A stretch of 64,000 nucleotides of DNA, taken from contig CAVTRY010000011.1 in the NCBI GenBank assembly GCA_963737265.1, forward strand, positions 608,001 through 672,000, in the 5' to 3' direction. The stretch's first letter is position 1; every line of letters begins with the position of its first letter. The notes below the pieces were generated by a model that worked only from the letters and a program-made list of their open reading frames with translations, did no database searches and was not told the DNA's origin. The translations under genes and the position numbers were made by a program. Source of the DNA: an uncultured delta proteobacterium (GTDB taxonomy: Bacteria; Myxococcota_A; Polyangia; Fen-1088). Positions 27,846 to 64,000 of the stretch are shown piece by piece.

Positions 27846-28987
27846 ATGATTGAGGTCCTGGAGCAAGTCGGATTCTTCCCTCACACGTGTGTGTGGGAAT
27901 TGACCCTGGGGTGCAATCTGCGGTGCAAGCACTGCGGTTCCATCGCCGGCAGCCAGCGTTCGGCCGAGCTTTCGCTCGATGAGTGCCTCCGCGTGGCCGG
28001 CGAGCTGGTGGCGCTGGGGTGTCAACACATCACCTTGATTGGCGGCGAGGTAATCCTGTACCCAGGCTGGCACGAGGTGGGCAGACGACTGGTCGAGCTG
28101 GGAGCGCAGGTCAACAGGATCTCGAACGGTATGACCTGGTCACCCAAGCATGTCGAGCAAGCCAAGGCCGCCGGCTTCTGCGCGGTGTCTTTCAGTGTGG
28201 ACGGTTTCGAGAAAGAGCATGACGAGGTCCGGTCGCCGGGATCGTTCCAGCGGGTGGTGCGGGCCATCGACATGACCGTGGCGGCTGGCATGCGGACCGC
28301 GGTGAACACGACCATCAACCGGCTTAATTGCGGCCTACTTCCGCGGCTGCGGAAGTTCTTGTGGACCGAGGGGTTTCCGCCTGGCAGGTCCAGCTAGTCA
28401 CCGCGGCGGGGAATATGGGACAGCACCATGAGCTGCTCTTGCCGTCGGAATACCTGTTGTGGCTGGTGCCTCAGATCGCTGAGATGTGCCGGATCCTTTG
28501 CCCAGAGTTCGAGATCTACGTCGGCCACAACATCGGATACTTCGGCAATCCCGAATCGGCACTCCGCGCTGCAGACGTTGCGCTGCCTTTCTGGCTCGGC
28601 TGCCGAGCCGGTTGCCAGGCGATCGGGATCGAAAGCGGCGGGGACGTCAAGGGCTGTCTATCCTTGCCCTCGTCGGCGCACGGCGAGAGCCGGTTCGTCG
28701 AAGGCAACCTGAGAGCGAAGAGCCTGCGCGACATCTGGAATCGCCCGGAGGCTTTCGCCTACAACCGACGCTGGAAAGTAGATCAGCTGGGTGGATTCTG
28801 TCGGGTCTGCCGCTTTCGCGATGTGTGTCGCAGCGGTTGCAGCTGGGGTACCTGGGCTCAGGGAGGAGGCGGAAACGAGCATTGCTTCTACTACCAGGCC
28901 GTCAAGCACAAGCGCTTCGCTCTGCTCGCCGAGGAGCCGACCGCGGCAGAGACCGCCTACTTCGCCGGACATCGTGAGCCCGGTTGA
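27846..28987 (+). pseudogene. Radical SAM/SPASM protein, frameshifted near 28355
   Basis: CNLRCKHC and GGE in the first frame; SPASM cysteines CRAG..GDVKGC..CRVC..C.SGC..C in the second; the frames join at RKF/LVDRG. Confidence 0.88.
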
Positions 28988-53254: not shown

Positions 53255-53410
53255 AGATTCCTCGTGGTTGGGTTGCCCAGTTCTGGCATAAGAACGAAAC
53301 AGAGTCGCCCATTTTCGCACCCCGTGGACCAACCCGGCCGGTATTCCCAATTGGCGGGCGAGTCGGGTTAGTGTCTTGGTGATTTCGTGTTTATTCGAGA
53401 GGATGTCATC

Positions 53411-55774
53411 ATGACCGATCAGCAGACGCTTTCACGGATCGGGACGGTCTATTTTCTCGCGACGATTCTTGTCGCCTGCGCGGGGGCCAAGGTGGGCAGC
53501 GGCGACCAAGGAGGTACGAGCCCGGGTGGAAATGGTGTTGTTGTTGGCGGCGGCGGCACCACTGGAATCTCCATCAACCTCGACGGCGGGCCCTCTATCG
53601 GGGGAGTCGGTACGGGCGGGACAGGCGGCTACCAGCACCCCGCCACCAAGAATTTTCCTGAAGAAGCTACCTGCCAGGGCGCCTCGGGTCAGTGGGGCGA
53701 AGCCCTGCAGAAGGCGCTGTGGTTTCTCAATGTGAACAAGTCCGGGCCGGGTGTGCTGTCGACCTACGTTCAGTGGCGAGGCGATGCGCACCTGATGGAC
53801 CAGCACATCAAGTTGAGTCCAACCGATCCGACTGGCGTGAATATGTCGCAGGCATTCATCGACCAGAATCGCGCCGTGCTCGATCCCAAGGGTACCGGCG
53901 AGGTCGACCTGTCGGGCGGATTCCACGACGCCGGCGACTACATCAAGTTCGGCCTGACGACGGGTTTCACCGCGTCCACCGTGGCGTGGAGCCTCTACGA
54001 ATTTCCCGATTCCTTCCGTATCACGGGACTCGAGGACGAAACGCTCAACCTTCTACGCTGGGCCGACGACTACTTCATGAAGTCGACCTTCCTGGACAAC
54101 AACGGCAATTTCGTGGCCTTTGCCCATCAGGTTGGCGACGCCTCGGATCACACCTGCGGTTGGATGCCGCCCGAGCTGCGACGCGTCGACTTCTGCCCAC
54201 GCAAGGGCTACTTCGCCACCGCCGAGACGCCCGCGGCCGACGTTACGGCGAGCGCGGCCGCGGCGCTGGCGCTGACGTCGCTCGTGATCAAAGCCAAGGA
54301 CGCGGACTACGCGCAAGCCTGTCTCAAGTACGCCACCGCTCTTTACAAATTCGCCGCCCAGCACCCAGACACCGTCGGGAACACAACCGGAGGACTCTAC
54401 ACGTCCGAGTACGCGGCCGACGATCTGGCCTGGGCCGCCATCTGGCTGTATGAGGCGACGGGGACGCAATCCTATCTCGACGACGTCCTCGGCGTTGGCG
54501 GCGCTGGCGGCGGCTGGCTCGACCACTTCCCTGGCTTCAAGACCACCTGTCTGCAAAGCGCGGGAGCCAGCTGTTGGACCGAGTCGCAGACGCACGACTG
54601 GAACTCGGTCAGATCCGGCGTGTTCCTGAAACTCGCGCAGATTTTGCGCGATACCAACAGCCCTCTGGCCAAGGGGATGGCCATCATCGCGCGCGACGAC
54701 TCCATGAAGTGGCCGCAGGGCACTGTGGCCATGACACCGGCAGGGTTCTCCGTGCTCTACGCCTACGGCTCGGCCCGCTATAACTCGGCGGCGCAGTTCG
54801 TCGCCTTGCTCTATGCCAAGCTCTTCGGCGCGAAAGATCCGGACGCCGTTAACGCCATCACCCCCTGGGCCAAGAAGCAGATGGCCTACATCTTGGGCAG
54901 CAACCCGCTTGGTAAGTCGTACATGATGGGGTTCACCGACAACTACTGCAACCAGCCCCACCACGCCGCCGGCCACGCCTCGATCTGGGGCGAGCCCAAC
55001 AACCCGGTGGCCAACCGCCACATCATCTGGGGCGCTCTCATCAACGGTCCCGACGCCGCCGACGGTCACATCGACAACCGCGCCGACTTCGGCAGCAACG
55101 AGGTCACCATCGACTATAACGCCTCGCTCATCGCCGCCCTCGCCGCCCAGTATTCGCTGCAAGGAAATGGGCAGTGTCCCTTGGCGCAGTTCCCGCCGGT
55201 CGAACCCGAGATCGACGAATACTACACGCTTTCCAACCTCAACTCCGGGGGCTCCTGCCGTTCCCAGGTCACGGTCACGCTCATCAACGAGACCATCCAT
55301 CCGCCGCGCTACAACGAGAACCTGAGCGTGAAGTACTTCTTCGACATCAGCGAACTGCAGGCCCAGGGCAAGTCCATCAGCGACGTCACGGCCAGCCTGA
55401 TTTACGACCGCGGCGCCACCGAATTCGGCCAGCCATCCAGCATCGCCTCTCCCAAGCTTTGTCCCAAGAGCTCTTCGACCTACTACGTGGAAATGGGCTT
55501 CGCGGGCTACGACTTCTGGGGCCGCATCGTCCAGCTCAAGGCCCCGCGCACCTTCATGCTCGATATCGGCACCGCGAACGGCGCCGACTGCGTCTGGGAT
55601 CCATCCAACGACTGGAGCTACGCTTCCCTGCAGCCGGCGCCAACCGACGGTAGCGACCCGCCCAAGACGCCCCACATCACGGTGTATAGCAACGGCATCC
55701 TCGCCTGGGGCGAAGAGCCGCCCTGCTTCGACGAAACGGTCACGCCTCAGCCGCCGCCGATCTGGATCCCGTAG
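53411..55774 (+). CDS. GH9 endoglucanase with C-terminal CBM3-like module, lipoprotein
   Basis: Lipobox LVAC; DLSGGFHDAGDYIKF, PHH, D..ADF..NEVTIDYNA catalytic motifs; CBM3 features KYFFDISEL, YYVE, WDPSNDWSY, WGEEP. Confidence 0.93.
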   Translation: MTDQQTLSRIGTVYFLATILVACAGAKVGSGDQGGTSPGGNGVVVGGGGTTGISINLDGGPSIGGVGTGGTGGYQHPATKNFPEEATCQGASGQWGEALQKALWFLNVNKSGPGVLSTYVQWRGDAHLMDQHIKLSPTDPTGVNMSQAFIDQNRAVLDPKGTGEVDLSGGFHDAGDYIKFGLTTGFTASTVAWSLYEFPDSFRITGLEDETLNLLRWADDYFMKSTFLDNNGNFVAFAHQVGDASDHTCGWMPPELRRVDFCPRKGYFATAETPAADVTASAAAALALTSLVIKAKDADYAQACLKYATALYKFAAQHPDTVGNTTGGLYTSEYAADDLAWAAIWLYEATGTQSYLDDVLGVGGAGGGWLDHFPGFKTTCLQSAGASCWTESQTHDWNSVRSGVFLKLAQILRDTNSPLAKGMAIIARDDSMKWPQGTVAMTPAGFSVLYAYGSARYNSAAQFVALLYAKLFGAKDPDAVNAITPWAKKQMAYILGSNPLGKSYMMGFTDNYCNQPHHAAGHASIWGEPNNPVANRHIIWGALINGPDAADGHIDNRADFGSNEVTIDYNASLIAALAAQYSLQGNGQCPLAQFPPVEPEIDEYYTLSNLNSGGSCRSQVTVTLINETIHPPRYNENLSVKYFFDISELQAQGKSISDVTASLIYDRGATEFGQPSSIASPKLCPKSSSTYYVEMGFAGYDFWGRIVQLKAPRTFMLDIGTANGADCVWDPSNDWSYASLQPAPTDGSDPPKTPHITVYSNGILAWGEEPPCFDETVTPQPPPIWIP

Positions 55775-56110
55775 GACAAGCCCGGGCTTCGCCCGCAGTA
55801 GATCAGCGTCGCGGCCGCGGAGCGGGCGGCGTTGCTGTTGCGCCATCCTCGGGCCACCGCGCTGCACGCCCAAGCCCTGGCCCGCACGGCCGCCTGCCTC
55901 GCAACCTGGTGGCGAGCGCGGAGACTGGCTGAACTGACGACACCTCGACCAGGGCGGGATGGAGTAGACTGCCCTGCGTGCTCAACAGAGACCCCGTCAG
56001 GCCCCAGAAACCCGGTCAAGCGCGCTGCGCCAACGTGATCGGGGCCGACCTGATGCGGTCCGGCATGGTTCTCCGACGCTCAAAAAACCCATTCGAAATG
56101 CCTATGGTCA
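55470..56110 (+). repeat. 641-bp direct repeat, copy 1 (GH9 3' end + IS91-like right end)
   Basis: Near-identical to 60251-60893; I found only a 2-bp indel and one substitution. Confidence 0.95.
55830..56110 (+). mobile_element. IS91/ISCR-like remnant A1: decayed transposase C-terminus and oriIS-like end
   Basis: LLLRH/LGPPRCTPKPWPARPP..GDWLN* (stop 55937), then ATGGAGTAGACTGC motif and terminal CCCATTCGAAATGCCTATGG. Confidence 0.65.
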
Positions 56111-56150
56111 TGAGGCGCAGAGGTGTTTTGCAGCGAGGGCAGACGGTGTC

Positions 56151-56319
56151 GGCGACCTTCGCGGGACGCCATGGGGTACACTGCGCCCCGTGTTCGCGAC
56201 ACACCCTCAAACCTCCCCCGCGACAATCCCGCGTTTTGGCACCGGCCCACTCGCAAGCAACTCGGCCCGGCCTCGAAGGGTTCTCGCTCGTCGCAAAAAC
56301 CCTTTCGAAAGGACTAGGA
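56151..56319 (+). mobile_element. IS91/ISCR-like remnant B: diverged right end only
   Basis: ATGGGGTACACTGC at 56171 and AAAAACCCTTTCGAAAGGACTAGG end, with the same 142-bp spacing as A1. Confidence 0.6.
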
Positions 56320-56408
56320 TCCTCAGGCACCGCCTAGGCACCTGCGACTGCTCAGAGTTTCCGAGCTTGTGTTACCATGGCTGAGCGCCCTGAAATCAGG
56401 AGGTTCGG

Positions 56409-57726
56409 ATGCCCGGTCCTGCTCGCACCATTCTAGATAATCTAGGCAAGCAAACCCTGAGACGGCTGTGCGAAGAGCGTGGATTGCAAACCGCCAGAGA
56501 GCTCGATGAAATGCGCGCCCGCCTCGCACATTCCTTCAGGGGTGACACGAAAGAACTCGTAGACCGTCTTTCCCGGAGAGAAATGCAGCAGATTCTCGAT
56601 GTCTGGGAATTTGAAGTTGACGGACACTATGGGGGCTTGGTGGGTGTGTCATATGCGTCGAAGGATGACCTCGCGAAGGCTGTGCTGGTTATCTACGAGG
56701 ATGGCTGGGGCCCAACAAGTCGAAGCCTGAGCCCGGTGGGGAGTGGATCTCGGTTGCGTGTTTCGATCGATGACGAGACAGATTTGGAGGATTGCGCGCA
56801 TAAGCCCGAAGCTGAGGGTGGCCCCCAGACCGAGGAAGAGGCCGCCCAGCCGTTCGACGACGAAGGAGAAAGAAGCTTTCTCGCCGATCTCTGATTCGAA
56901 ACTCGCCGAGCGAGGTCGCACCACCACGTACATTCGCAGGCTGGTGAACGACCTTGGCAGACACCACGCCGAACATCGCCTTCGGTTGAGCGCCGTTCGA
57001 CACGTTGGCCACGTGCTTGTGAGCGCTGGAATGTCTACAGACCCCGATCTGTCGACAATGACCGCAGCACCTGGAATCGACGCCCGCGTTGTCGTCATCC
57101 GGCGCATGGCCTCACCTAGGAGGAGGCACGATTCGGCAATTACGCGCGACGTTATCTCGCGCTCAGATCCACCACCCGGAACGATGAGGATTCGGCCACC
57201 GACAGCACCATCACCGGTACCTTCCGCACAACCTTCCGGATTCGAGATGGCGAACGAGCAACTGAAATTCCTGGTTACTGTCGCCACTTCGATCAGCATT
57301 CTGAACCAAGAAGGGCGAGCGCAGGCCGTCGAGATGGCTTCGGAGGGAATCGAACTTAGCGCGGCGGATCGAATCCGGTTGAAGGCATTCTCCCATCAAT
57401 ATGCCGGTGGCAACTTCGAATTAGGGCGCACTTTGGCCTATCTCCGCGCCGGACTTCCGGAACGCAGGCGGCAGCAGTTGCTCGATTGTCTCCTCGTACT
57501 CGCGCCGACCTGTCAAGCACTAGACGAAGCGCGGGAGGCTCATGCAGTTGAACTAGGGGTACAAGCGCGTATCGAGTCCCCGCCCTCGGCCCCACCTGCG
57601 AATAGCCAACAGACGGTCACTCCCGCCCAATCCACGAAATCCGAGCCAATCGGACAAGGCCAAATCGAGGCTGGCGGGGTACGACAGAACGAAGGACTCG
57701 ACTCAGTCTTTGGAAAGGGGACGTAG
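56409..57726 (+). CDS. Hypothetical multidomain protein with TerB-like C-terminal region; apparent 1-bp insertion near 56892
   Basis: AGGAGG RBS at ATG 56409. ORFs 56409..56894 and 56743..57726 fuse as ERSFLADL-DSKLAERG if one T is removed. Helical C-domain resembles TerB-like folds (by eye). Confidence 0.6.
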
Positions 57727-57728
57727 TC

Positions 57729-59789
57729 ATGGGCAACCAAGGAACGATTGACTCCGACGCCACCCTTGCCCGGGCTGTCTATGGGACGCGTGTTGTTGAC
57801 AAGAGCCTTTCAGGAGAAGAGGCATTTGCACGCCTTCCTCGCTTTGTTACCGAGTATCTCTTCGCAAAATATGTGCGCCCAGGGCGCGAACAGGAAGACT
57901 TGCAGTCCTTGAAGGAGAAGATTCGCGGTCGCATTCCGGAGGCTGACCAGAAAGAAATAATCAAGAACCGGCTCATGCGGGACGGTGAATATGTCGTAAT
58001 CGATCAACTAGAAGCCGAGGTTGATCTCGTCGAGAACTGTCACCGCGCGCGCTTGAACTGCCTGGATTCCGAATCGATTCAAATCGATGCCGATCTCGTA
58101 GATCGTTTTGAGGGCGTCCTGAGTGGCGGACTATGGGGAACCGTGACCCTCAGATACGATTCCTCAGCACCCCCAAAACTGAAGATTGCTGTCAAAGCCT
58201 TCGTTCCATTTCAGCTTGACCGTCCCGACGTCGATGGGTTCAAGAAAGGGCGGAGCCGCTTTGCTCTTGATGAATGGATCCGCCTGCTTCTTCGAAGCGC
58301 GGGGTACGAGCCTGACACAATCCCGAGCGAGCGCCAGAGATGGTTGCTTCTTGCCCGGATGATCCCACTGGTCGAACGAAATTTGAATCTGATCGAGCTT
58401 GGGCCGAGGGGTACGGGCAAGACCTTTCTACTCAGAAATCTCTCTCCGACGGTGTTCACCATCTCGGGAGGTCGACCTTCGCCGGCAACCCTTTTCATTC
58501 ACAAAGTCTCGCAGCGACTCGGCATCATAGGCACGCGCAAGGTGGTTGTATTTGATGAGATTGCCGCAACCACTTTTCCAGACCGGGAAACTGTTGCTAC
58601 TCTCAAGGATTACATGGAGAGCGGGCAGTTCAGTCGGGGCAGGAAGGTTGTCGCGTCCGACGCAAGTCTGGTCCTGACCGGGAATCTTGAGGTTTCCGGC
58701 GATCAGCCCAGCGAGCAATACACCCATTTGTTCCAGGAGCTGCCAGCGCCGTTAGTCGATGCCGCATTCTTGGATCGAATTCATGGGTACTTGCCAGGCT
58801 GGGAGATACCGAAAGTGAGTGAAGCGTCTCTAGCCCAAGGCGTTGGGTTTGTGACTGACTATTTTGGAGAGGTATTGAAATCGCTCCGAGACGATGATGT
58901 CGCGCGGGCACTTGATCCTGTTGATCCTGGCGCCAGCGCAACAATTCGTGACGCAAGGGGCGCGCGCCGAATCGCCTCCGGAATGTTGAAGCTGCTTTTC
59001 CCAGACGGAAGCCATTCAGAAGAAGACGTAAAGCGATGCATGCGGTTTGGGATCGAGCTGCGACAACGCGTCCACAACCAGCTGACCCAGATTGCCCCAG
59101 GAGAGTTCGCGCGAAAAGTCCTCGCATTTCCGGGCATGGAACCACATGAGGCACGCGACCTGGTGGAGTCGAGAAAAGTTCAAGAACGCGACGTGCGCGC
59201 CAATCGTGAGCCGGTAGTTGGACAAGTGACAGGCTTGGTCGTGTTGCAGACGGGTGGTGTGATTACTGGTGGCGATGTCTTCTTCACGGAGGTTTCATTG
59301 TTGCGCGGACGGGGTGGCGCGGGCTTTAGCATCACCGGCTTGAGAGGACCGGTCCTAAATGATTCAGTTAAGACAGCTTTCCAAGTGCTCCAGCAACTAG
59401 GGGGTCAGTGGAAAGGCGTTCCCCCACGCCTCGCAGATTCGACGGTGGCGGTTCACCTGGTGAACATCGCAGATCCTAAGGAGGGACCTTCCGCCGGTGT
59501 CGCGTTCGTTACAGCGATGGTCTCGGCGGCGTTAGGAATCCCTGTGCGGCCAGCCTTGGCCATGACGGGGGAAGTAACTCTTCACGGTTTCATCGGTCAG
59601 GTTGGCGGCATCGTCCACAAACTCAAAGCAGCCGTCCAGCACCAGCGCAAGCTCGTGATTATTCCTGCGCAGAACGCCGGTGATCTTCGCGACGTCCCCG
59701 ACGACATACTAACTGCCGTCGAGATTCGCACGGTAAGTCGGATCGAGGAAGTCCTGGAACTGGCTCTGGAACGTCTGCCCAATGACTAG
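57729..59789 (+). CDS. brxL: BrxL-like Lon-related AAA+ ATPase with S16 protease domain
   Basis: PRFVTEYL N-domain, ELGPRGTGKT Walker A, VVVFDE Walker B, LKDYMESGQFSRG, AFLDRIHGYLPGWEIPK; protease PKEGPSAG with Lys 43 residues downstream. Confidence 0.88.
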   Translation: MGNQGTIDSDATLARAVYGTRVVDKSLSGEEAFARLPRFVTEYLFAKYVRPGREQEDLQSLKEKIRGRIPEADQKEIIKNRLMRDGEYVVIDQLEAEVDLVENCHRARLNCLDSESIQIDADLVDRFEGVLSGGLWGTVTLRYDSSAPPKLKIAVKAFVPFQLDRPDVDGFKKGRSRFALDEWIRLLLRSAGYEPDTIPSERQRWLLLARMIPLVERNLNLIELGPRGTGKTFLLRNLSPTVFTISGGRPSPATLFIHKVSQRLGIIGTRKVVVFDEIAATTFPDRETVATLKDYMESGQFSRGRKVVASDASLVLTGNLEVSGDQPSEQYTHLFQELPAPLVDAAFLDRIHGYLPGWEIPKVSEASLAQGVGFVTDYFGEVLKSLRDDDVARALDPVDPGASATIRDARGARRIASGMLKLLFPDGSHSEEDVKRCMRFGIELRQRVHNQLTQIAPGEFARKVLAFPGMEPHEARDLVESRKVQERDVRANREPVVGQVTGLVVLQTGGVITGGDVFFTEVSLLRGRGGAGFSITGLRGPVLNDSVKTAFQVLQQLGGQWKGVPPRLADSTVAVHLVNIADPKEGPSAGVAFVTAMVSAALGIPVRPALAMTGEVTLHGFIGQVGGIVHKLKAAVQHQRKLVIIPAQNAGDLRDVPDDILTAVEIRTVSRIEEVLELALERLPND

Positions 59790-59811
59790 CTAGCGAGGCG
59801 CGATGCGATGC

Positions 59812-60250
59812 GCATAGGCGAATCGAATGGGGTACTCGGACCACCACACCCTCGCGCGCACCTGGACAGCATGGCGGAGCGGGTTTGGCCGGCGGGATTC
59901 GCGTGGCGAAAGGTCTGTCTTGACCACGAGCGCAGTCTACCCCATGGCGAGCCCGCCTAGGTCGCCTTGATCAGTTCAGCCAGGCGTCGCCGCTACCAGT
60001 CTTGCGGGGCGGCGGACGCGCGGGGCGTAGCTGAGCGACGGGCGCGGCGAAGCCGCGTGGGGGCCTTGCGCTTGTTTGCTGGGCCGGCTGGCGCTGCCCC
60101 AGTGGTAGCAGCCGCGAGCAACCTGGCCAGGAGCGGATCCTTCTCCGCCATGGTCTCGTCGCTGACGACGGTGACCTCGCTGTCGCCCGGCGCGGCGACT
60201 AGGGTGATGACGCTGCGGCGCTGGAGGAAGCGGAGAATGCGCTTGCTGGC
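59812..60250 (-). mobile_element. IS91/ISCR-like remnant C: internally deleted transposase and oriIS-like end
   Basis: Minus strand KRILRFLQRRSVITLVAAPGD..LLARLLAAATTGAAPAGP fused out of frame to RPARPPPRKTGSGDAWLN* (stop 59971), then ATGGGGTAGACTGC and CCCATTCGATTCGCCTATGC. Confidence 0.7.
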
Positions 60251-60893
60251 GCTCTTCGACCTACTACGTGGAAATGGGCTTCGCGGGCTACGACTTCTGG
60301 GGCCGCATCGTCCAGCTCAAGGCCCCGCGCACCTTCATGCTCGATATCGGCACCGCGAACGGCGCCGACTGCGTCTGGGATCCATCCAACGACTGGAGCT
60401 ACGCTTCCCTGCAGCCGGCGCCAACCGACGGTAGCGACCCGCCCAAGACGCCCCACATCACGGTGTATAGCAACGGCATCCTCGCCTGGGGCGAAGAGCC
60501 GCCCTGCTTCGACGAAACGGTCACGCCTCAGCCGCCGCCGATCTGGATCCCGTAGGACAAGCCCGGGCTTCGCCCGCAGTAGATCAGCGTCGCGGCCGCG
60601 GAGCGGGCGGCGTTGCTGTTGCGCCATCCTCGGGCCACCGCGCTGCACGCCCAAGCCCTGGCCCGCACGGCCGCCTGCCTCGCAACCTGGTGGCGAGCGC
60701 GCGGAGACTGGCTGAACTGACGACACCTCGACCAGGGCGGGATGGAGTAGACTGCCCTGCGTGCTCGACAGAGACCCCGTCAGGCCCCAGAAACCCGGTC
60801 AAGCGCGCTGCGCCAACGTGATCGGGGCCGACCTGATGCGGTCCGGCATGGTTCTCCGACGCTCAAAAAACCCATTCGAAATGCCTATGGTCA
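60251..60893 (+). repeat. 643-bp direct repeat, copy 2 (GH9/CBM3 3' fragment + IS91-like end A2)
   Basis: ORF 60268..60555 is identical to the GH9 C-terminus; the match runs to ...ATGCCTATGGTCA. Confidence 0.95.
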
Positions 60894-60894
60894 G

Positions 60895-61356
60895 ATGCGC
60901 TCTCCAGGCAAGAACCTAATCGCGAGGCTTCTGGCGACCAGTTCGCCGTCCGCCGTGGTGCTCATGCGACTGACCGTGGGGGCCGTATTCCTTTCCGAAG
61001 GCATTCAGAAATTCCTATTCCCGGCCGCGCTCGGGGCCGGTCGGTTTGCCAAGATAGGTATCCCTTGGCCGGAGTTCAGCGCGCCCTTCGACGGGGGTTT
61101 TGAGGTCGGTTGCGGTCTTCTGGTCCTTGTCGGCCTTGGAACTCGGCTCGCCACGCTCCCGCTCATCGTCGACATGTTGGTTGCCATCGCGACGACGAAG
61201 ATCCCGATGCTTTTCAAGAGCGGGTTCTGGAGCACGCTGCACGAGGCACGGACCGACTGGTCGATGCTCCTTGGCGCGCTTTTTCTCCTGATCGTTGGGG
61301 GCGGCGCCTGGTCGCTCGATGCGTGGCTCGCTCGACGAGACACCGCGCGTGACTGA
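60895..61356 (+). CDS. DoxX family membrane protein
   Basis: LMRLTVGAVFLSEGIQKF, GLGTRLA, GGGAWSLD. Confidence 0.9.
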   Translation: MRSPGKNLIARLLATSSPSAVVLMRLTVGAVFLSEGIQKFLFPAALGAGRFAKIGIPWPEFSAPFDGGFEVGCGLLVLVGLGTRLATLPLIVDMLVAIATTKIPMLFKSGFWSTLHEARTDWSMLLGALFLLIVGGGAWSLDAWLARRDTARD

Positions 61357-63115: not shown

Positions 63116-63754
63116 TTAGTCCGCTTCGATGCCAACGCGCAATCCGAGGGTAAGAATCGCTTGCCGAAGAGTATCGTCGGCCGAAAGACGACCACTCCGC
63201 CGGGTGCCGCGAAGCGCTGAACCAGCGCGGTCACCGAACAGGACAAGCGCCTTATCCTGGTCGCGCTTGCAGGATATCCAGAGCAGACCGTCCACCTTAT
63301 GATACTGCCGATGCAGAGCTTGTGCCCACAGTGCGGTGTTTAAGTAGTCGGTGGGCGGACTCTCGATCAGCTCGTCCTTCGGGATCTTGAGAAGATGAAG
63401 ACGATCGGTCGTCAAGTCGATGAGCTTCAGGTCACGGTCTGGTATTACCACTCCATGGGACCGATCGCCGAATTCGTCCAAATCTACGAACTTGTCTGGC
63501 GCATCGATTGGTACGTTGTGGAAGATGGTCTCGAAGATAGCTCCCTCAAGCGACGAGCCACCGTAGAGATAGGGCACTGGCTTGCCGGAAGAGTCATGAA
63601 TCGGAGCGAAGCGGGTCGGCTTAGTCGGTGCAGCGGCGAGGTTGAAGCTTTGTGGCTCGAAGTCGGTATGGTGAATCGTGTGGATCTCGGTGCCGGCTGG
63701 CCAGCCATAGACATTGGCAACGAGCGACTTTCCCGGCGGGAGACGGCAGGTCAA
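63116..63754 (-). CDS. RES domain toxin (NAD+ phosphorylase-like)
   Basis: TTG start overlapping the antitoxin stop; RFAP, LYGG, FETIFHNVP, WAQALH, DGLLWIS, LVLFGDR. Confidence 0.85.
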   Translation of the reverse strand: MTCRLPPGKSLVANVYGWPAGTEIHTIHHTDFEPQSFNLAAAPTKPTRFAPIHDSSGKPVPYLYGGSSLEGAIFETIFHNVPIDAPDKFVDLDEFGDRSHGVVIPDRDLKLIDLTTDRLHLLKIPKDELIESPPTDYLNTALWAQALHRQYHKVDGLLWISCKRDQDKALVLFGDRAGSALRGTRRSGRLSADDTLRQAILTLGLRVGIEAD

Positions 63755-64000
63755 GCCGCGCTCCCTCCGGCATCTCGGCGGGCCGCCTCGATCACGTCTT
63801 TGGGCGACGAGGTCAACAAATCCACGGGGCGTGCCTGGTTCGGAAGCCAACCGTTGTTCGACGTGAACCATAGCGCCAACTTCCACGGAGACTTCCGTTC
63901 GCCGAACGCTTCGATGATCTCCCGCACAGCCTTGATCGGGCGGTGGTCCTCGAACTGAAACAGGGGAAAGACCTCGTGTTGTCCCTTCTTGGCATCGCGA
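63751..64000 (-). CDS. Xre/MbcA/ParS-type antitoxin, C-terminal part (5' end outside window)
   Basis: Not in the ORF track. Reads FPLFQF..SPWKLALWFTSNNGWLPNQARPVDLL..VIEAAR*; coupled to the RES gene. Confidence 0.85.
   Translation of the reverse strand, partial: RDAKKGQHEVFPLFQFEDHRPIKAVREIIEAFGERKSPWKLALWFTSNNGWLPNQARPVDLLTSSPKDVIEAARRDAGGSAA

Follow-up and report, generated by a model that had tools for sequence, protein, structure and literature searches.

A duplicated cellulase gene tail and IS91-family relics around a BrxL operon: an arrangement resembling ISCR-type gene capture in an uncultured Myxococcota-like bacterium

A stretch of 64,000 nucleotides from an uncultured delta proteobacterium (contig CAVTRY010000011.1 of assembly GCA_963737265.1, positions 608,001 to 672,000), referred to below as the window, contains a foreign two-gene operon that encodes a BrxL-type protein and a partner protein of a small family. 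The operon is enclosed by two nearly identical direct copies of a segment of about 641 nt (A1 and A2). In each copy, the 3' end of a gene for a GH9 endoglucanase with a C-terminal CBM3 domain is joined to the decayed right end of an insertion sequence (IS) of the IS91 family (relic A). Two further IS relics, B and C, lie between the copies, and the whole unit, called the cassette here, has the order A1 - relic B - cargo - relic C - A2. With moderate confidence, this A-B-A layout (repeat, interval, repeat) is best interpreted as the footprint of gene capture by an ISCR-like element, that is, a rolling-circle element of the IS91 family.

The duplication is the central observation. Bases 55470-56110 are present again at 60251-60893, as found by both a repeat search and a global alignment. 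The global alignment gives lengths of 641 nt for A1 and 643 nt for A2, with a single mismatch (55984 A / 60767 G) and a single indel of 2 nt, an extra GC at 60697-60698 in A2. The near-perfect repeat with one substitution and a 2-bp indel described in the initial annotation is thus borne out. The repeat search returned two segments, one of 300 nt with 100% identity (55470-55769 = 60251-60550, spacing 4781) and one of 195 nt with 99% identity (55916-56110 = 60699-60893, spacing 4783). A repeat of 641 nt with approximately 99.5% identity cannot be due to chance, and the near-identity of the copies points to a recent event. The edges of the repeat are exact, because the bases immediately beyond both of them differ and do not permit even a 1-base extension.

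The two edges are of different kinds. The left edge corresponds to residue ~695 of the 795-aa GH9 open reading frame (ORF), just within the end of the CBM_3 match (residues 619-702), and the palindrome AAGAGCTCTT is located there, at 55466-55475; both the position in the CBM3 coding region and the palindrome had been given correctly beforehand. The right edge had been placed a few bases after a motif resembling oriIS, the end at which replication of IS91-type elements starts. The measured distance is 5 nt past CCTAT, a motif found at 56101-56105 in A1 and at 60884-60888 in A2. On its left side, A2 directly adjoins a minus-strand transposase fragment at 60250, and tblastn confirmed this fragment as the truncated remnant (remnant C) previously reported beside the second copy. 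On its right side, A2 stops 1 nt short of the ATG (60895) of an ORF for a DoxX-family protein. Within each copy, the CBM3-coding 3' end takes up 305 nt, the native flank 82 nt, and an IS right-end relic 254 nt. Flanking DNA similarity to a related GH9 locus (L002) runs 82 nt beyond the GH9 stop codon, to 55856. The earlier figure of 4.1 kb for the bracketed cargo holds as the distance between the repeats; as the size of the cargo it is too large, since the foreign operon occupies only ~56323-59808 and the interval also contains two further IS right-end relics. The coordinates of all features are collected in Table 1.

Table 1. Features of the cassette and its immediate surroundings (window coordinates).
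Feature	Position	Strand	Description
GH9 endoglucanase with C-terminal CBM3	53387..55774	+	Pfam Glyco_hydro_9 7e-107, CBM_3 1.2e-06; last 305 nt within A1
Repeat copy A1	55470..56110	+	641 nt: CBM3 3' end 55470-55774, native flank 55775-55856, IS relic A 55857-56110
IS relic A	55857..56110	+	Last 25 transposase codons, stop 55935-55937, 173-nt oriIS-side region ending CCTATGGTCA
IS relic B (right end L)	56111..56322	+	About 212 nt of diverged right end, directly 3' of relic A, oriIS end towards cargo
Cargo gene 1, encoding a ~437-aa member of a small unnamed family	56409..57726	+	1-nt frameshift at ~56892; frames 56409-56894 and 56893-57726
Cargo gene 2, BrxL-type Lon-like ATPase/protease, intact	57729..59789	+	Pfam BrxL_N, BrxL_ATPase, Lon_C; starts 2 nt after gene 1 stop
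IS relic C (right end R and remnant C)	59792..60250	-	CCTAT motif 59819-59809; tnpA stop 59971-59973; codons 228-289 at 60250-60065
Repeat copy A2	60251..60893	+	643 nt: CBM3 gene fragment, native flank, IS relic A
DoxX-family membrane protein gene, right-hand host flank	60895..61356	+	Pfam DoxX 3.7e-15

The IS91/ISCR identity of the relics, proposed previously, is supported by transposase fragments in relics A and C and not by the terminal motif alone; judged by sequence similarity, the assignment holds for all three relics, with the transposase present only in the form of fragments. For relic A, a tblastn match to residues 479-503 of the transposase P0005 starts at 55857 with 50% identity, and the nhmmer match has E=1.4e-55. 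Relic B is recognised by nhmmer at 56117-56339 (E=5.7e-50), and relic C at 60009-59792 (E=1.8e-41). Relic C contains, in order, codons 228-289, an internal deletion with a change of frame, the last ~20 codons with the stop, and a region similar to the tail of the repeat; it is cut at codon 228 by A2. Its codons 228-289 (remnant C) correspond to the same residues of transposases of ~503 aa with the domains PF14319 and PF04986, with 92% identity, in a protein search that yielded 283 proteins at E<=0.01 among 3148 candidates. Relic A carries the end of a second, more diverged transposase copy (50% identity).

Scanned with a profile of the right end (~200 nt), the 64-kb window yields exactly four copies, each of them at the cassette locus: 55896-56123 (+), 56117-56339 (+), 60009-59792 (-), and 60677-60893 (+). 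Their E-values range from 1e-55 to 2e-41, and the next best match in the window has E=1.7. The terminal motif common to the right ends occurs 3 times in the window, compared with 0.37 expected by chance. The inner copies L and R face one another across the cargo with their oriIS ends inward, so that the cargo sits on the oriIS side of both relics B and C, like the variable regions of ISCR1. Overall, relics A, B, and C are alike at only ~65-75%. Over their last 25 nt, relics A and C agree at 19/25 positions in a manual count on the alignment, which makes cross-recognition of both ends by one transposase plausible. Two other identities for the ~200-nt elements were considered and rejected. In an Rfam scan of 55300-61200 (E<=1), the only known RNA returned was RAGATH-16 inside brxL, at 23.7 bits against a gathering threshold of 65.6. 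As promoters, the elements gave 0 sigma-70 sites against 1.2 expected, together with 4 terminator-like sites against 5.1 expected.

The closest plasmid relatives of the transposase are ISCR-type proteins annotated as 'IS91 family transposases', with 36% identity at 97% coverage. In ISCR copies on two plasmids that differ in their downstream DNA, the shared sequence ends 6 nt past CCTAT, ~232 nt after the stop codon. By comparison, the cassette repeat ends 5 nt past CCTAT and 173 nt after the transposase stop. This agreement in offset with the plasmid boundary provides the strongest indication that the repeat probably ends on its right at, or very near, the oriIS terminus. In a comparison confined to relics A and C, a conserved stretch of ~173 nt extends from the stop to CCTAT+5. 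A repeat with one edge at oriIS and the other at an arbitrary upstream position has the appearance of a one-ended transposition unit, and an arbitrary left edge inside a coding region is what would be expected of read-through termination.

Published work on this family provides the frame for such a reading. In the IS91 family, replication proceeds from oriIS to terIS; terIS is missed in 1-14% of events, and adjacent DNA is then carried along, no target duplication is made, and the transposase can act in trans (PMC13181058, PMC3189936). The target tetranucleotides of IS91 are GTTC and CTTG (PMC13181058). IS801 takes up 290-1431 nt of upstream DNA, and its right-end 'miniatures' of 229, 360, and 679 nt account for 26% of transposition events (PMC3189936). 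Copies of such IS also offer homologous sequence through which plasmids integrate and excise (PMC3189936, PMC13181058). In ISCR1, the variable region lies on the oriIS side (PMC6218425), and ISCR1-linked integrons contain duplicated anchor segments, namely the 3'-conserved segment (3'-CS) (PMC3575428).

The ISCR1-linked class 1 integrons are the closest parallel to the cassette. Both have an anchor present twice in direct orientation and a foreign variable region; the integrons show no target-site duplication (PMC3575428, PMC6218425), and no short duplication was seen at any of the relics. In both, an IS91/ISCR right end directly follows the first anchor, with its oriIS side facing the variable region. 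The transposase family is likewise held in common with the ISCR-type plasmid protein. In contrast to these integrons, however, the anchor of the cassette is a cellulase gene tail with an IS relic and not the integron 3'-CS, none of its three IS copies, all of them relics, retains a usable transposase gene, its cargo is not drug resistance, and its host, judged from the GH9 relatives, is Myxococcota-like and environmental. The scanned window ORFs include no integron genes. Given the cellulase-tail anchor and the relic state of the ISCR copies, the cassette is an analogue of the complex class 1 integrons and not a member of them. Similarity to IS801 and IS91 is found in the right-end fragments of a few hundred nt, accompanied by a few hundred nt of putatively recruited upstream DNA; the relics (212-254 nt) resemble the IS801 miniatures (PMC3189936). 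Unlike IS91 and IS801, the transposase of relic C is of the longer ISCR type (~500 aa), no GTTC or CTTG is present at the cassette ends, and the cassette is known as a static arrangement.

The capture history proposed here is the most economical one that accounts for all junctions. It would begin with a decayed oriIS-side right end just downstream of the GH9-CBM3 gene and immediately upstream of doxX. A related transposase, acting in trans, would have initiated rolling-circle replication at the oriIS of relic A. Replication would have proceeded leftwards past the position at which terIS is expected, taking 387 nt of host DNA (cellulase tail and flank) and yielding the 641-nt unit. This unit would then have inserted at codon 228 of the transposase gene of another ISCR-like copy, whose oriIS end adjoined the foreign operon of the 437-aa protein and BrxL. 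A second round from the same oriIS would have replicated the unit together with the disrupted transposase, the operon, and one more right-end relic, the third, and would have stopped at what is now 56111. The final step would be the return of the product of ~4.78 kb to the chromosome by one of two routes, homologous recombination with the 641-nt segment already present there or insertion at a target beside the resident oriIS. Both routes yield the same A-B-A arrangement; consequently, recombination and transposase-mediated insertion are indistinguishable here, and re-entry by homologous recombination is possible. The ISCR capture model attributed to Toleman et al. in 2006 reportedly includes such a homologous-recombination step. 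The repeat with its exact edges and make-up, the IS91-family identity and orientation of the three relics, and the foreign character and gene content of the cargo are observed directly. We infer that replication began at relic A with transposase supplied in trans, and likewise infer in what order the events took place, that a donor replicon was involved, and how the product re-entered. Recombination between the 641-nt direct repeats is further predicted to delete the cassette as a ~4.78-kb circle, restoring the order GH9-relic-doxX, or to amplify it.

Several points weigh against the capture model. It requires several steps and an unseen donor. No intact IS91-family transposase was found in the window by tblastn with 3 full-length proteins or by Pfam analysis of 18+41 ORFs, and no terIS is present in it, because all three relics are devoid of their 5' parts. 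The bases after the three putative termini (GATG, CTCA, and TCGC) share no common tetranucleotide and are not of the GTTC/CTTG type. When the flanks past the right ends were compared (56111-56130, 56323-56345, 59785-59808, and 60894-60917), those of A2, L, and R proved weakly alike for ~19 nt past CCTAT+5 (5/25 three-way matches, shuffle p=0.035), a similarity not seen in the A1 flank, where relic B begins. The true end of the element may therefore lie up to ~19 nt further, which would put the repeat edge slightly inside the element instead of at the nick site. Predicted single-stranded DNA folds of the three oriIS ends, one ISCR end, and both left-edge contexts are no better than those of shuffled sequences (z -1.6 to +1.0), and so the modelled folds give no support to conserved hairpins at the ends. 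A comparison with relatives revealed no empty site, since only GH9 is shared and the loci are not syntenic. In published accounts, ISCR transposition had not yet been shown experimentally as of 2018 (PMC6218425), and most genomic IS801 fragments are attributed to reorganisations and not to one-ended transposition (PMC3189936).

This last attribution, in which the IS mainly supplies homology, leads to an alternative without any transposase: illegitimate or homologous recombination among decayed IS copies would have produced A-B-A, with the closeness of the repeat edge to oriIS as a by-product. The internal deletion and frameshift of remnant C fit such a history, as do an element terminus that is not firmly defined and a window devoid of transposase. 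The coincidence of the right edge with the CCTAT offset of the plasmid ISCR boundary nevertheless argues against it, since rearrangement leaves an edge at CCTAT+5 unexplained. Relics that are ~65-75% alike are moreover a poor substrate for homologous recombination, and no microhomology is visible at either junction. An origin by rearrangement is considered unlikely. A local hop is a further alternative. If the cargo and relics B and C were already located between relic A and doxX, the 641-nt unit could have transposed in cis to a site ~4.1 kb downstream, and the neighbouring part of transposase C would have been lost. Such a hop predicts the same pair of edges, oriIS at the right and an arbitrary point at the left, and requires no unseen donor replicon; for IS801, transposition of short right-end units, and of units that have recruited upstream DNA, is on record (PMC3189936). 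However, since the DNA to the right of A2 contains no transposase codons below 228, two independent breaks would have to fall together, at 60250/60251 and 60893/60894. The hop also invokes a presumed insertion-linked deletion of adjacent DNA and leaves the first arrival of the cargo unexplained. It is regarded as quite unlikely.

The layout could also be a product of assembly, if the chromosome carried a single A (GH9-A-doxX) and the remainder, the interval plus one A, came from a free-standing ~4.78-kb circle, part of a plasmid, or a variant strain that shares A; the assembler would then have passed once round a cycle in its graph. The close GH9 relatives are metagenome-assembled genomes, so the window may likewise come from such a genome. 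Indel errors are hinted at by at least two probable frameshifts in the window, one affecting cargo gene 1 and the other a split radical-SAM/SPASM gene. The ORF spanning junction J2 (59967-60431) has two partial matches in other assemblies, and these are uninformative at 48% and 24% coverage. Yet the copies differ by a mismatch and a 2-nt indel; they were thus resolved as distinct, which favours the existence of two real copies. The host DNA on either outer side is unique, and the A-B-A layout makes biological sense in the light of known ISCR structures. An artefact is considered quite unlikely. Foreign DNA between direct repeats that include a gene 3' end also recalls an integrase-borne island inserted in the GH9 gene with a replacement gene tail, the 641-nt repeats serving as att sites. 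But no integrase or recombinase domain was found in or beside the cassette, 641 nt far exceeds the usual att cores, and the right 254 nt of the repeat are an IS91-family relic. Such an island is extremely unlikely.

The cargo itself is compositionally foreign. The interval ~56323-59808 has 52-60% GC and a GC3 of ~0.6, compared with 61-70% GC and a GC3 of ~0.86 in the host DNA. It contains two genes and not three, given that the ORFs at 56409-56894 and ~57247-57726 belong to one gene. In tblastn, the intact homologue P0126 aligns through residues 1-161 with 56409-56891 (96% identity) and through residues 162-437 with 56893-57723 in another frame (89%). A near-identical cargo protein, P0125 (98% identity), is encoded on a 277-kb contig of another assembly and belongs to a cluster of 8 sequences; with 216 aa, it is cut at a different point from the partner gene of the window, whereas P0126, likewise near-identical and from another assembly, is intact. 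The breaks in the partner gene may reflect either decay of the cassette or indel errors in assembly.

The family of the partner protein is small: a search of 1.84 billion proteins returned 15 representatives at E<=1e-3. No Pfam family above cut-off was obtained for 6 of its members, and neither PADLOC nor NCBIfam gave an assignment. Two weak leads exist. The N-terminus may form a SAP-like helix pair, with a best score of 0.83 to SAP-like clusters in an atlas search and a Pfam E-value of 0.0099, and the C-terminus a TerB-like bundle, with a Pfam E-value of 6.6e-4 that is below cut-off and with TerB-family structures as the top two Foldseek matches at E ~1. The AlphaFold2 (AF2) model has a pLDDT of 72.8 and a pTM of 0.41, and a Foldseek search of this model against the PDB gave 0 matches at E<=0.001. 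By tblastn, P0126 had no match in plasmids or phages, and the cargo DNA as a whole produced a single match to plasmids, of 110 nt within brxL.

The second gene encodes a BrxL that is intact although divergent. PADLOC identifies it as BrxL (1.2e-144), the solved BrxL structure 8emc in the PDB is matched at 3.3e-92, and the score against TIGR02688 is 437 bits with a cut-off of 329; the score against TIGR02653 is below cut-off. The motifs GPRGTGKT and GPSAG are present. Like the BrxL of type 1 BREX, the protein combines BrxL_N, an AAA+ ATPase, and a Lon protease domain, although it shares only 32-34% identity with BrxL proteins of plasmid BREX systems. Unlike type 1 BREX, no brxA, brxB, brxC, pglX, or pglZ stands beside it, and none of these was detected among the 59 window ORFs scanned. 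Compared with the usual BREX gene order, the only neighbour of brxL in the cassette is the unnamed 437-aa protein, and the locus does not qualify as BREX. A brxL without other BREX genes, coupled to its partner at a distance of 2 nt, may represent a BREX-independent two-gene module, and in this operon BrxL is a candidate for a role outside BREX. A wider proposal is doubtful: the pair would be an anti-phage module spread among soil Myxococcota by ISCR-like elements, with the relics as capture devices that, although consisting of oriIS ends without transposase, would still pick up host gene tails as homing anchors. Among the papers listed in literature searches and judged by title and abstract, none concerns capture of BrxL by IS91-type elements.

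The left-hand host gene is conserved. A GH9 scan of genome contigs, in a collection from which the source genome is absent, gave 12 loci, 5 of which are close relatives (50-77% identity). These five loci (L001-L005) come from Myxococcota-type metagenome genomes; amino acid identity is 73-77% for L001-L003 and 50-53% for L004-L005. The orthologues in all five align through residues 780-795 of the GH9 protein. Since this alignment reaches the C-terminus, A1 carries the genuine 3' end of the gene and A2 a gene fragment. None of the GH9 neighbours in the window is conserved beside it in L001-L005, which places the cellulase gene in a variable neighbourhood. Specifically, 14 other window proteins and 3 transposases had no match in the loci of the GH9 relatives, and the IS right-end profile had none in 14 loci.

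On the right-hand side, the IS relic ends 1 base before the doxX ATG (window 60883-60897), and any promoter or ribosome-binding site of doxX would therefore fall inside the relic. This position recalls the outward promoters of the ISCR1 oriIS region (PMC6218425). A consensus promoter scan found no promoter in the relic before doxX.

To our knowledge, ISCR-type capture has been documented almost only for resistance genes on plasmids of clinical Gammaproteobacteria, with its steps inferred from static structures. If the layout does record ISCR-like capture, the cassette would be a fresh chromosomal case (99.5% identical copies) in which the tail of a host gene serves as anchor and the cargo is of defence type. 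Such a case suggests that the ISCR route may also shuffle immune genes in soil bacteria, and that right-end relics without a transposase may remain active as long as a related transposase is present. With moderate confidence, the case is considered an environmental example of a known capture route with an unusual host, anchor, and cargo, and not a new mechanism.

Two observations concern other parts of the window. A Radical_SAM ORF (27846-28397) overlaps a SPASM ORF (28328-28987) in another frame. The pair (27846-28987) looks as if it were one frameshifted maturase gene, a hint of indel errors or pseudogenes. Near the end of the window, a RES-domain protein of the toxin type known from RES-Xre pairs is encoded at 63116-63886 on the minus strand (5.3e-15).

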